Source: Candidatus Micrarchaeota archaeon (GTDB lineage: Archaea; B1Sed10-29). Taken from it: a stretch of DNA of 25,796 nucleotides. Positions 6,001 to 9,000 of the stretch are shown here, one piece after another (the stretch's first letter is position 1; the number at the start of each line of letters is the position of its first letter). The position numbers are program-made. The stretch covers positions 1-25,796 of the forward strand of contig CAYLXZ010000010.1 of NCBI GenBank assembly GCA_964388265.1, in the 5' to 3' direction.

Positions 6001-9000
6001 TTAAGAAAGAAAAAAACAAGAGACTGAAAGATCTTAAAGAAAAGAAAAAGAAAGCTGAAGAAGCTGAAAAGAAAGCAAAGTACCTAGAAGAACAACTTAA
6101 TTCATTGAAAAACCTCAAAGGATCTTTAAATAGAGTTCAAGATAAACTAAGAGAGAAGTTCACGGAAGAGACCAATATAGCTCTGGATAACGTCTGGAGA
6201 AAGATATACCCCTACGGAAACTACGAAACCCTCAGGCTAGGTGTAGAGGACGGAGACTACATCCTCCAAGCCAAGACCCAAAGCGGAGAATGGATTGACG
6301 TAGAAGGAAGAACCTCAGGAGGAGAAAGAAGCACTGCAGGACTCTGTCTAAGAATAGCTCTTGCACTCGTACTAACAGGAGATCTATCTTGGATCATACT
6401 GGATGAGCCAACCCATAACATGGATGAAAAAGCTATAGAGAACCTATCAGTAGCTCTAGGAAGCTATCTACATGAGATAATCGACCAAGTATTCATAATC
6501 ACACACGAACCAAAACTAAAGAAGGCTTCCTCTGGAACGTTCTACAGGTTCTCTAGAGATAAAGAAGAGAATGAACCCACGAACGTCCTGAGAGAATAAA
6601 TCTATCTAGAGCACTTCTTCTTGGGATAAATCGGTTAAATAGCCTGCTATGATGTTTCTATTAACCTTTGTCAGAGGAAGATCAAGTTCCTTTAACTCTT
6701 CCTTGTTCTCCTGGAAATCTGTAGAGAACCTCTCCGGTAGCTTTTCATAGATCTTCTGAGCTCTTCTTTTAACTATTCTGGTTCTCTGTTTACCCAATTT
6801 CTTCACCTTGTAGATTTACTACTTCTTCTTCTCCGTTCGGGTATTTCCTGACAACGGATATAGGTAATACTTTTTCTTCAAATTCTTCTTTTGCTATTTC
6901 ATCGGATCTTGTTAGGTTCTTTGTATCTTCCAGTAGGACTGGGGCTCCCATTGATATCTGGAGAGCTCTGGCGGCTATTACTCTTGCTTCTTCGAATCTG
7001 GTTAACACTTTTATCACCGTGGTGGGTATCTATTTTACTCTTAGAGATTTAAAGGGTTTTGGAAAGATAAGGGGTTATTTTTCGATGTAGTCTTCGATTA
7101 ATTCGTATGCTCTGTTAACTGATTTCTCTACATCTTGTTCTTTTTCTCCTCCTGTGCAGATCATTTTTCCATTCTTGAATAAGAGGAGTGTTGTTCCAAG
7201 GTCTTTTAGTTTTAGTATTGCTCCTGGGAACTGTTCAGGTTCATATTCAACGTTTTCAACTTCCATCGCGATTCCGTATAGATCTAGCTCGACATCGAGG
7301 TTTGCTGATGCCACTATGTTCTCTATTTTGTAGTCTATTTTAGCCATGTTTTATCACCTTTTAAAAGTAGTTATTTATATTCCTATATCCGTCCTTTATA
7401 AAGGTTCAATCTTAGGGATTTTAGGCACTACATTTTCCTAAAGTTGGGAAAGAGATTCGATTATGTTTCCCTCTAAGTCTGGGTAGAGATCTTCAAGTAT
7501 CTGGAACGGTCTCTTGAGTCCCTTGAAGTTACTTACCATTTTATACGCTTCTTTATAGTGTTTTTCTCCAAATACTTGGGTAGATACTTTTCTGGTGACA
7601 GCGCATACTATAATATGTAGCCTTGTACGCGGCGCTTCATTAGGATAAATTTCTCTGAGGTGCTGGAGAACATCTGTAGTTGCTTCTCTGTTTTGAGTGA
7701 TTATTCTATGAGTTAATTCATGGACCAAAGTCTCGCAGACCAAGGCATACCTGTTGTCAATTTTTACTGTCAGAGGATCAGAAAAACCAGATACCGCTAG
7801 ATGGTTCACGAAGTACACTGGGATAGTTTCTTCTTTCCAATCAAGGCCTGTAGACTCTGATATGAATTTAAGAACAGTTTCTTCCTTTTCATCGGTCCAA
7901 TGCCCCTTCAAATCTTCTATGAAGTCGCTGTAGTTTTGTTCTGCTTCTTTTCTCTCGAAATTTTTTCCTTGAGATTTAGTTAGTTCTCTGTCGTAGGGTT
8001 TTGAGTACCTGAACTCTAACTCTGGCAAGTTATCCATATAATTCACATGAATGCTTCGGCGTCTTTTTCTTGTTTTTCTTTGTTTTCTTCGAATCTCCTG
8101 GCTTGTTCTTCTAGGTTTTCTCCTAGTCCGATTTCGCTTGATTTCCTTTCCCTTATCTTTGCGAACACTGGGTTGCTTACTGCTTCTCCTACTATCAGGG
8201 ATTCTCCTACTCTAAGTGTGGTTAGTGATTCTAGTGAGTCTTGGTCTATTCCTTCACTTGTTTTGCTGATGTGATCTAGGTCGTGTGGGTTGGTTATTCT
8301 CATTATTATCTGGGTGTTGCATTGGCTGAGTGCTGTTGTGGATAGCTGCATTGGTCTTTGGCTTACTAGGCAGAGTGAGGCTCCGAACTTCCTTCCTTCT
8401 CTGGATATTGTTTCTATTATGTCTTTTGCTATTGCTTCTTCAGATTCTGCTCCTTCTTTGACGAAGTTATGTGCTTCTTCTACGAATAAGATGAATGGCG
8501 GTACATCTGTTTTTCTTCTTTTCTGGAATAGTCTTTCTGCGATGTAGGCTGTTAGCATTCTTCTTTCCTTCTGGCTAACCATTCTGCTTAAGTCTAAGAT
8601 GGTTAGTTCTCCTGGTGTGATTAATTGATCTATGCTTGATCCTGTTTCTGCGAATAAATCGCTTTCCAGGTTACGTAGCCATGCTACCAGCGCGTTCTGT
8701 AGTTTTTCATTCATTTCTTTGTCTTTCAGTATTTCTTCAACTATGTCTTCTATTCCGTATGGTCCTTCTCTCTGTCTGAGTGTGGTTATCGCGTTGTGTA
8801 GTTCTCTTTTTTGTGGTCTGCTCATTCCTGGTAGGAATACTGCGAAGTCTGATACGTTTAGTGATGATACTGGGATCTTGAAGTTCTTTCCGTCTATTTT
8901 GTTGGTTTTGGATCTGTATTTCTCGGATTCTGCGAAGCTCTTGTATTCTCCGTGTACGTCCATGACTATTGATGCTGGTCTTCCTTCTTCTCTTTCTCTA

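Follow-up and report, generated by a model that had tools for sequence, protein, structure and literature searches.

TBP is required at every archaeal and eukaryotic promoter. To our knowledge, every characterised TBP is a single two-lobed chain, and we know of no instance in which the ancestral TBP homodimer, assumed for thirty years, was available for study. Stand-alone TBP-domain proteins are described in Brindefalk 2013 (PMC3597702): halobacterial TbpA coexists with very similar full-length TBPs of the same species and is not essential, and the monopartite proteins of Thermococcales are far diverged from TBP, form a sequence cluster of their own and always occur beside a normal TBP of 174–192 aa. 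In literature listings outside the subscription journals, we found no account of a genome or clade whose sole TBP has one repeat.

The window analysed here, a stretch of 25,796 nucleotides, encodes a TBP of just this kind (Table 1). The ORF listing gave one ATG-started frame of 90 aa for tbp, with stops flanking it on each side in all three frames. The product matched the TBP family PF00352 with 96.8 bits (cut-off 22.9) in a single stretch that placed residues 5–86 on profile positions 1–84 of 85; the two tandem repeats per polypeptide that characterise a canonical TBP were not found in this 90-aa chain. When a six-frame translation of positions 5500–9000 was searched with a one-repeat HMM, stops being read through, the tbp stretch scored 156 bits and the next best −3.9 bits, and no second TBP repeat was detected near tbp in this region. 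The half-size, one-repeat gene described in the first-pass annotation is thus confirmed by the intact 90-codon frame, the flanking stops and the PF00352 score. Its further claim that this is the only TBP of the genome was borne out too: a scan of the whole source genome (725,682 bases, 82% complete) returned one PF00352 match above the cut-off, and even at E ≤ 10 no second match was better than 14.3 bits. That 14.3-bit match (contig C11, E 0.02) was taken as noise and lies opposite a longer ORF of 194 aa. The latter appears CBS-pair-like by eye. Neither the source genome nor 13 further one-repeat genomes of its phylum contained a two-repeat TBP. We conclude that tbp encodes a true TBP repeat, the sole TBP of this genome.

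Table 1. Coordinates of tbp, its neighbours and upstream signals in the window
Feature	Coordinates	Strand	Basis and remarks
tbp, one TBP repeat	7075..7347 (stop codon within coordinates)	−	ORF, PF00352 and AF2 model
rpoK (RNA polymerase subunit Rpo6)	6790..7017	−	PF01192, 33.9 bits; 57 nt downstream of tbp, same strand
Ribosomal protein S17e gene (rps17e)	6606..6806	−	PF00833, 38.9 bits; overlaps rpoK end
tfb, transcription factor B (zinc ribbon and two cyclin repeats)	3362..4273	+	PF00382, 141.1 bits in 2 stretches; PF08271, 60.5 bits
Shine–Dalgarno-like GGTGAT	7353..7358	−	Read from sequence; 5 nt before ATG
Putative promoter AACC-TTTATAAA-GG	7393..7406	−	Read from sequence; function inferred

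The AF2 model of the tbp product, based on a 112-sequence alignment, predicted one TBP lobe with a pLDDT of 92.6. Its elements (E11–16, H23–29, E33–35, E43–47, E52–56, E61–67, H70–87) follow the order S1-H1-S2-S3-S4-S5-H2 of a single lobe. All 44 Foldseek matches of this model at E ≤ 0.001 were TBPs (TMq 0.78–0.88), half of each target being covered, and VIA-align comparison with TBPs gave Z values of 13–15 (maximum 15.1) over 87–90 residues. Among the 112 aligned one-repeat proteins 29 columns are invariant, including F40, F57 and the motif EYEPEQFPG. F40 (in EQFPG) and F57 (in LLLFKNGK) align with the corresponding phenylalanines of each half of 1MP9, 2Z8U and 1AIS. These phenylalanines are the DNA-kinking residues of TBP, and EYEPEQFPG is its TFB-binding stirrup motif; the lobe therefore carries the phenylalanine pair and stirrup found in each lobe of a canonical TBP, and the kinking phenylalanines are kept, as had been noted at first pass. 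The product shared 50–53% identity with Methanobrevibacter loci. Attempts to assign it to the N- or the C-terminal lobe by HMM, phmmer and VIA-align ended in ties or a slight C lean: the tbp product scored 91.4 with the N and 101.3 with the C HMM, the one-repeat proteins of the phylum scored nearly equally with the two (average −2.3 bits), and phmmer gave matches of roughly equal strength to either half of solved archaeal TBPs. All ten NCBIfam TBP models (PRK00394 set) scored the product at 62.0–87.2 bits, under their cut-offs of 181–347; the alignment fell on the C-terminal half in eight of the models and on the N-terminal half in two. For annotation practice this means that one-lobe TBPs of this type score under the NCBIfam TBP cut-offs.

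PF00352 matches were found in 29 of the 31 genomes of the source genome's phylum, the scan returning none in G014 and G029. A single one-repeat gene is present in 14 genomes (G000, the source genome, as well as G001, G003, G004, G005, G007, G008, G013, G015–G017, G027, G028 and G030), two or three separate one-repeat genes in eight (G018–G024 and G026), three one-repeat frames and a weak two-repeat frame in G025, and two repeats in one frame in G009–G012; G002 and G006 hold TBP fragments at contig ends only. These figures reproduce the counts of the first-pass annotation. Five of the one-repeat genomes (G004, G015, G016, G017 and G030) are 91–96% complete, G017 consisting of 2 contigs at 91%. 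By family, two-repeat genes occur in two of the 12 (f5 and f6) and one-repeat genes in ten. In the Micrarchaeota-titled phylum (the phylum of G031) about 90 of 311 genomes have exactly one match, all 90 being at least 85% complete, and about two thirds of the phylum is two-repeat. Of the 165 genomes that gave a match in the phylum of G406, 163 had two or more repeats. Two-repeat frames were likewise found in both euryarchaeal phyla sampled (31/31, and 30/31 with the remaining gene truncated by the start of its contig) and in two other DPANN phyla (41/41 and 40/41); barring one gene cut at a contig end, none of 144 genomes from four other archaeal phyla had the single-repeat layout. A protein search returned 997 candidates of 49–158 aa, 996 of which match the query, some of them encoded on contigs as long as 0.69 and 1.08 Mb. 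The one-repeat pattern thus holds across the phylum and extends well beyond it, to the Micrarchaeota-titled phylum. Many of the public records recovered for these proteins carry the title "hypothetical protein".

Assembly or gene calling could in principle have collapsed the near-identical repeats of a two-repeat gene into one, and DNA-identical tandem copies, if collapsed, would give exactly this layout. There is almost no chance that this happened here. Unitigs from two runs span tbp unbroken and without an inserted stretch, and their depth over tbp (7.8) equals that in the flanks (6.2–7.8), so that a collapsed tandem copy is not indicated. Moreover, the rpo6–tbp layout is the same in a ~91% identical relative from another study, the repeats of known fused relatives are at most 78% identical at the protein level and thus too different for collapse, and the one-repeat form recurs across hundreds of independent assemblies. 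The distribution bears equally on the idea that tbp encodes an accessory one-lobe protein, similar to TbpA or the Thermococcales proteins, and that the real TBP is absent from the bins. With the source genome 82% complete a gene could be missing, and separate TBP-domain proteins in species that also have a full TBP have been published (Brindefalk 2013, PMC3597702). A full TBP would, however, need to have escaped detection in all 14 one-repeat genomes of the phylum, five of them 91–96% complete, and again in the 90 genomes of the Micrarchaeota-titled phylum. The one-repeat gene also sits in the slot of its relatives' two-repeat gene, and it matches the Pfam TBP profile strongly, in contrast to the Thermococcales proteins, which PMC3597702 describes as far diverged from TBP. 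We therefore regard an accessory role as very unlikely.

The spacing of the genes suggests that tbp, rpoK and rps17e form a probable co-transcribed unit, rps17e overlapping the end of rpoK. The order HerA–tbp–rpo6–S17e is kept in the four members of the family whose locus is intact (G001, G003, G004 and G005). In related genomes one- and two-repeat genes occupy a common slot, with L21e and Rpo4 upstream and a frame of 226–304 codons downstream. Besides the tfb gene in the window, the whole-genome scan revealed a second one on contig C5, giving the source genome two ordinary TFB genes; TFB is the expected partner of the TBP product.

The best and most economical reading of a one-lobe TBP is probably a homodimeric saddle: with only one lobe encoded, two identical copies probably must pair for transcription to start. 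Two identical chains would join via their first strands into a ten-stranded saddle, as formed by the two fused lobes of canonical TBP. Each chain would contribute EYEPEQFPG as its stirrup, along with the phenylalanines F40 and F57, and the dimer could in this way kink the TATA box at both ends. We propose that such a dimer, being exactly symmetric, would be unable to read promoter direction, and that direction would instead be set by TFB on one stirrup together with a BRE-like element that flanks a near-palindromic TATA core on a single side. Binding of TATA and TFB by the tbp product is putative and fits the sole TBP match, the two TFB genes and the TATA-like words upstream.

The putative tbp promoter has a TATA-like core (7395–7402) that is a perfect palindrome 47 nt from the ATG, with AACC, BRE-like, on its upstream side. 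Upstream words were counted from crude ORF calls in the source genome alone. In 405 upstream regions the palindromic TTTATAAA occurred 16 times and was enriched, as was the palindromic ATTTAAAT (18 times); TTTAAATA was counted 30 times and its reverse complement 23 times. Also enriched was the flank AACCTTTA, which was oriented, with 11 occurrences in the 405 regions versus 2 of its reverse complement. Only 95 TTTAWA sites lay inside the expected zone in 404 upstream regions. AGGTGA and GAGGTG were among the most enriched words upstream of ORFs of this genome, in line with the Shine–Dalgarno-like GGTGAT before tbp. An EM motif search of the same regions ended in a pyrimidine-rich pattern, which was set aside in favour of word counts.

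Weak TBP-like matches in G001, G003 and G004 fall on the C-terminal end of frames of ~324–325 aa and were rejected as partner candidates for the source genome, which gave no match of this sort. The frame of G004, the one that was read, appears ThiF/MoeB-like by eye. A ThiF/MoeB-like class bearing a TBP-like domain is listed in Brindefalk 2013 (PMC3597702).

The lobe might also pair with a second, unrecognised protein. Eight genomes of the phylum, and G025, have two or three half-genes whose products could pair with one another. In the source genome, however, no candidate above the 14.3-bit match emerged even at E ≤ 10, and the weak matches of the three relatives (ThiF/MoeB-like by eye in G004) have no counterpart. 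Where paralogues exist, the two have their motifs in common, and their N-versus-C scores lie close together (+1.5 versus −4.6 bits). A heterodimer is hence unlikely, and the homodimeric saddle is the reading we retain.

In P0124 of G011, a natural fused relative, the repeats are 77.8% alike and 66–68% identical to the tbp product, and the predicted model is a full saddle (pLDDT 94.9, TMq 0.85–0.93). This protein, too, stays under all ten NCBIfam TBP cut-offs (128–186 bits). In our alignment the repeats of the two-repeat proteins of G009–G012 were 67.0–77.8% identical to each other; the first-pass annotation gave 71–80%. The duplication into separate half-genes that it described is supported: class-level lineages carry two paralogous half-genes and paralogue B forms a clade with support of 100/99. 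Its proposal that fusion happened at least twice inside the phylum, by contrast, was not established, as the AU test did not reject one common origin for the C-terminal repeats found in G009–G012 (p 0.221). The single repeat of G013 groups with repeat 1 of G011 (80/86), and repeat 2 of G011 with repeat 2 of both G010 and G012 (76/76); the grouping of G013 with G011 fits loss as well as separate fusion. In the wider clade, one clade comprising all second repeats was rejected (AU test, p 0.0039), supporting repeated doubling, or else repeated gene conversion, as the likely course of events.

The free and fused repeats of these lineages formed one clade in five trees (support 96–100). Its placement varied with sampling: it stood as a third group in two trees, within N repeats in two and within C repeats in one. 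The third-group trees, by FastTree and the first IQ-TREE run, place the clade beside monophyletic N and C repeats, which is what would be expected if the one-repeat gene were a living relic, directly descended from a TBP that predates the duplication, in lineages that never had an N/C-differentiated TBP. The nearly equal HMM scores against N and C point in the same direction, as do the phmmer scores, which hardly differ between one half of solved TBPs and the other. However, the N/C split is common to other DPANN and to both sampled euryarchaeal phyla, and the lineages would have to branch before all of them. Furthermore, once 46 DPANN TBPs were added, the clade came out as the sister group of C repeats from another DPANN phylum, that of G034 (SH-aLRT 100), on a long stem (0.65) of the sort that can draw a clade to the middle of a tree. 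In another sample, the tree holding the C-side grouping had a lnL 19.4 above that of the free-search tree, and the AU comparison leans to the C-side placement, the alternative not being rejected. Denser DPANN sampling thus nests the clade in the C repeats at a higher likelihood, and descent from a pre-duplication TBP appears improbable. Equally improbable is the scenario that would follow from it, namely a relic homodimeric TBP with a transcription apparatus branching below the N/C split of other Archaea and eukaryotes, and in-clade fusions as independent re-runs.

We favour, without regarding the matter as settled, a secondary return to the homodimer: the one-repeat state looks secondary on account of the best-likelihood trees, which place it beside DPANN C repeats, and of the ordinary N/C TBPs in other DPANN phyla. 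The repeat type common to the free and fused TBPs of the Micrarchaeota-titled, the Iainarchaeum-titled and the source genome's phyla would then trace to a single lobe of a two-lobed DPANN TBP of the ordinary type. Most likely this was the C-terminal lobe, the half on which eight of the ten NCBIfam models align the tbp product. At a common locus the genes would since have changed on several occasions from the one-lobe to the two-lobe form or back. The "living replay" of the saddle's origin, as the gene had been presented, survives by analogy only.

A different history would lead to the same function: the ancestor may have kept a two-repeat TBP homogenised by gene conversion, one-repeat genes arising by later, repeated deletion. 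This is the less probable course, though a distinct possibility. It agrees with the nearly complete two-repeat state of the phylum of G406 (163/165) and the two-thirds share in that of G031, with the groupings of the G013 and G011 repeats given above and with the unrejected single origin of the G009–G012 second repeats. It sits less well with the source genome's phylum, where two-repeat genes occur in only two of 12 families and one-repeat genes in ten, and with the loci themselves: a trace of a second repeat adjoined a one-repeat gene at one of 69 loci, a frameshifted double, and the other 68 were without remnant. Since one clade of all second repeats was rejected, the deletion history likewise needs repeated events. 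Taken jointly, a TBP one lobe long as the only one of this genome, its action as a homodimer and the favoured descent from a C lobe make up an account that we consider likely.

An obligate one-lobe TBP as the only TBP of whole clades offers an experimental system for DNA binding by a symmetric saddle. In it one could also study how TFB and BRE by themselves set promoter direction, and it bears on what is gained from fusing and then differentiating the lobes. As one-lobe, freshly doubled and older two-lobe genes are found at one locus in related genomes, these natural intermediates allow the fusion step itself to be compared. If the homodimer was indeed regained secondarily, it would still be a natural experiment.

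Among known systems, halobacterial TbpA resembles the tbp product as a stand-alone single TBP domain close to true TBPs in sequence, as described in PMC3597702; it differs in that the source genome has no full-length TBP and that whole clades have the half only. The monopartite TBP-domain proteins of Thermococcales are of similar size (82–136 aa), stand-alone and predicted to adopt the TBP-domain fold (PMC3597702), whereas the tbp product matches the Pfam TBP profile strongly (96.8 bits) and has no normal TBP beside it. Coexistence with a two-repeat TBP, the mark of the accessory proteins, was thus not found in the source genome. With canonical archaeal TBPs (S. acidocaldarius 1MP9, M. jannaschii 2Z8U, P. 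woesei 1PCZ/1AIS) the product shares the repeat fold and the order of elements, with Foldseek identities of 41–43% to 1MP9 and 2Z8U and of 37% to 1PCZ and 1AIS, and VIA-align Z values of 13.3–14.3. The phenylalanines of EQFPG and LLxF-x-GK and the stirrup EYEPEQFPG align with both halves of the canonical protein, and TFB genes are present here. In contrast, the chain has 90 aa and one repeat rather than about 180 aa and two fused ones, so that its saddle would have to come from two chains and be exactly symmetric, and the clade signature is PGAILK and FKNGK instead of PGLVY[RK] and F-x-SGK. Further counterparts are the two-repeat TBPs of the same clade (e.g., P0124, and the Micrarchaeota and Iainarchaeum records). 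They are built from the same repeat type, 53–68% identical to the tbp product, group with it in every tree and lie, within its order, in the same chromosomal slot, differing in that the repeats are fused in one chain, where they are 43–78% alike compared with a canonical median of 48–49%.

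The tbp gene of the window encodes a half-size protein with a single TBP repeat (PF00352, 96.8 bits against a cut-off of 22.9), residues 5-86 corresponding to profile positions 1-84 of 85. When window 5500-9000 was translated in all six frames across stop codons, no second TBP-like stretch appeared; with our own one-repeat HMM, tbp scored 156 bits and the runner-up -3.9 bits. A six-frame PF00352 scan (E <= 10) of the whole genome (G000; 725,682 bases, 82% complete) returned tbp and one 14.3-bit match, which lies opposite a longer ORF and was discarded as noise. The statement of the first-pass annotation that this is the sole TBP of the genome was thus confirmed: there is one credible match, in a single-repeat ORF flanked on both sides by stops in all three frames. 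Logan unitigs from two runs of one study reproduced tbp exactly, with a depth of 7.8 over the gene and 6.2-7.8 in the flanks, and a relative ~91% identical, from a separate study, showed the same rpoK-tbp layout; data sets X3 and X4 are apparently a single set filed under two entries. A collapsed tandem copy of the repeat is therefore unlikely, and the one-repeat sole TBP is a real and robust observation.

Features of the window around tbp and at the window end
Feature	Position	Strand	Basis
tbp ORF, 90 codons, ATG start	7075-7347	(-)	ORF listing
GGTGAT	5 nt before tbp ATG	(-)	read from sequence
Putative promoter, palindrome-centred AACC-TTTATAAA-GG, core-to-ATG spacing 47 nt	7393-7406	(-)	
rpoK (Rpo6), then rps17e	downstream of tbp	(-), as tbp	Pfam
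herA, beyond the 202-codon ORF of the next row	upstream of tbp	(-)	ORF listing and Pfam
202-codon ORF between herA and tbp, HExxH motif (VHELTHR)	7438-8046	(-)	
tfb, normal	3362-4273		family search of window
Repair cluster rad50 / herA-nurA-mre11-like	4317-11312	rad50 (+), herA (-)	
IS605 OrfB (TnpB-like) gene, cut by window end	24872-25795	(+)	PF01385, 102 bits; HTH domain, 40.3 bits

The order herA-tbp-rpoK-rps17e, with rad50 opposite, is common to four other genomes of the phylum (G001, G003, G004, G005), and a second repeat would not fit into it. In these genomes herA directly adjoins tbp on its upstream side, and the 202-codon ORF, which has no Pfam or NCBIfam match, gave no hit at their tbp loci. 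The rps17e-rpoK-tbp genes interrupt the repair cluster between rad50 and herA; the middle part of the Rad50-like protein is extremely rich in lysine. A second tfb was found on contig C5 of G000.

The AF2 model of the window protein, based on an alignment (A2) of the 112 one-repeat proteins of at most 135 aa among 120 listed candidates, reached pLDDT 92.6 and pTM 0.80; its elements run S1-H1-S2-S3-S4-S5-H2. All 44 Foldseek matches of this model (E <= 0.001) were TBPs, half of each being covered (TMq 0.78-0.88, TMt 0.16-0.46). VIA-align gave Z 13-15 over 87-90 residues and placed the protein mostly on the C-terminal half, yet the differences between halves are ties. Twenty-nine columns are invariant in the 112 proteins, among them F40, F57 and EYEPEQFPG. 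In the turn before strand S4 (residues 50-53), LG or IG (LKDLGTT) replaces the PK of most TBPs (LKEPKTS) in the window's family and in many one-repeat relatives (loci L026-L028; consensus of A2). For P0124, the fused two-repeat TBP of G011, whose repeats are 77.8% alike, a full saddle is predicted (pLDDT 94.9, TMq 0.85-0.93 to solved TBPs). None of the 10 NCBIfam TBP cut-offs was reached by the window protein or by P0124.

Across the 31 genomes of the phylum (PF00352 scan, domains parsed with our own HMM), the counts of the earlier annotation were reproduced. Fourteen genomes hold one one-repeat gene, including G017 (2 contigs, 91% complete) and G004, G015, G016 and G030 (91-96% complete); eight hold two or three separate one-repeat genes; and G009-G012 carry two repeats within one frame. 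G025 has three one-repeat frames and a weak double. In G002 and G006 all matches are fragments at the ends of contigs, and G014 and G029 gave no PF00352 match. Contig C8 of G009 (L043:1426-3603 (+)) contains a 726-codon frame with four tandem TBP repeats (Pfam 237 bits, 4 stretches); the ~300 residues after them match no family. FastTree paired its repeats 1+3 and 2+4, the pattern that duplication of a two-repeat unit would leave; pair 2+4 is absent from the IQ-TREE quick tree. At L041:1492-2181 (-) (G026), L042:1489-2178 (-) (G025) and L014:1486-2133 (-), the one-repeat TBP is preceded by ~125-140 additional N-terminal residues, as counted over the open frame; the extra part of L041 has a weak sub-threshold match to HC2, histone-H1-like (16.5 bits). 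Weak TBP-like matches in G001, G003 and G004 (17.8-18.5 bits) fall at the C-terminal end of frames like that of L047:1480-2454 (-) in G004, a 324-aa ORF that appears ThiF/MoeB-like by eye (the sole one of its kind read). The PF00352 scan of G000 showed no such match; this protein class is mentioned in Brindefalk 2013 (PMC3597702).

One-repeat TBPs also occur outside the phylum. Of 997 candidate proteins 49-158 aa long, 996 matched the window protein; many belong to Micrarchaeota-titled records, and some are encoded on contigs of 0.69 and 1.08 Mb. The 80 top-ranking genome loci comprised 34 one-repeat frames, 45 two-repeat frames and one frameshifted double. In the Micrarchaeota-titled phylum of G031 (genomes >= 85% complete), 303 of 311 genomes had a match and 90, by our own tally, exactly one; unpublished G198 and G308 count in the denominator only. 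The Iainarchaeum-titled phylum of G406 (172 genomes >= 80% complete) yielded 165 genomes with a match and only 2 with a single one, in one case at a contig start. Two-repeat frames predominate in four other phyla, those of G032 (31/31 genomes), G033 (30/31, the remaining one cut at a contig start), G034 (41/41) and G035 (40/41). Among 69 one-repeat loci, one bears a trace of a second repeat: L090:1450-2152 (+), from a Micrarchaeota-titled record, is a two-repeat TBP gene with a frameshift in the second repeat. Eight PF00352 matches each in G631, G648 and G650 (0.9-1.0 Mb; the Aenigmatarchaeota-titled phylum of G035) would correspond to about four two-repeat paralogues.

Trees were built on single repeats, omitting duplicate loci (L031, L057, L062, L063, L133, L174), L002, domains covering <70 HMM positions and identical canonical rows. 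All repeats from the window's phylum and from Micrarchaeota- and Iainarchaeum-titled records, free or fused, formed one clade, with support of 99 (FastTree, 262 rows), 96 (IQ-TREE quick, 187 rows), 100/99 (careful tree, 82 rows) and 100 (248 and 156 rows each), and with the signature PGAILK and FKNGK. Its position relative to the N and C repeats of canonical TBPs shifts with sampling: it forms a third group in the 262-row and 187-row trees, falls among N repeats in the careful 82-row and the 156-row trees and, with 46 more DPANN TBPs, is sister to the C repeats of G034's phylum (SH-aLRT 100). For the 156-row set, the C-side-grouping tree had a lnL 19.4 above the free-search tree (p-AU 0.747); the preference for C in HMM and phmmer scores is slight. 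Together these results favour a secondary origin, by descent from the C lobe of a DPANN TBP of the ordinary type. The first-pass annotation had read the protein as the homodimeric state postulated for the ancestor of TBP. As a living ancestor it stands by analogy only; a relic origin is very improbable.

In this clade, genes with one repeat and genes with two occupy the same chromosomal slot: L21e and Rpo4 genes lie on its upstream side, a frame of 226-304 codons on its downstream side. Within single proteins of the window's phylum the repeats are 67-78% alike, and within those of Micrarchaeota-titled records 43-72%; the median for canonical TBPs is 48-49%. A single clade of all 12 second repeats, a group picked after the tree was seen, was rejected (AU p 0.0039, ΔlnL 72), so repeat doubling, or conversion between repeats, occurred several times. 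The earlier claim of at least two fusions inside the phylum is not established: a single origin of the G009-G012 second repeats is not rejected (AU p 0.221), and the grouping of the single G013 repeat with repeat 1 of G011 (80/86) fits loss and separate fusion equally well. Separate half-gene paralogues in class-level lineages, also noted earlier, are real (paralogue B clade support 100/99); the two are barely differentiated.

How could a single lobe serve as TBP? Two identical chains would form the saddle as a homodimer. That the window protein probably works in this way is the economical and well-founded reading, since one lobe alone cannot build a saddle, the genome encodes no further lobe, and strong constraint acts on the residues of DNA kinking and of the stirrup. 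An exactly symmetric dimer would be unable to read promoter direction. In archaea, this direction is set by TFB on the BRE. The enriched words upstream of G000 ORFs are palindromic or present in both orientations: TTTAAATA was counted 30 times and its reverse complement 23 times, ATTTAAAT 18 times and TTTATAAA 16 times, while the flank AACCTTTA is oriented (11 versus 2). Symmetric core words with an oriented flank may hint weakly at direction being set outside the dimer; the hint is weak because gene calls were crude and the counts come from G000 alone, without a control genome.

A full-text literature search, with subscription journals outside its reach, brought up no account of a one-repeat protein as the sole TBP of a genome or clade. 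A DPANN comparative study records TBP presence only (PMC8407392). Such a TBP is of high interest for transcription research. Stand-alone TBP-domain proteins have been published, in the cases described in PMC3597702 always beside a full TBP; halobacterial TbpA is one example, and a diverged group from the Thermococcales is another. Unlike these proteins, which accompany a full TBP, the window protein is the sole TBP of its genome.
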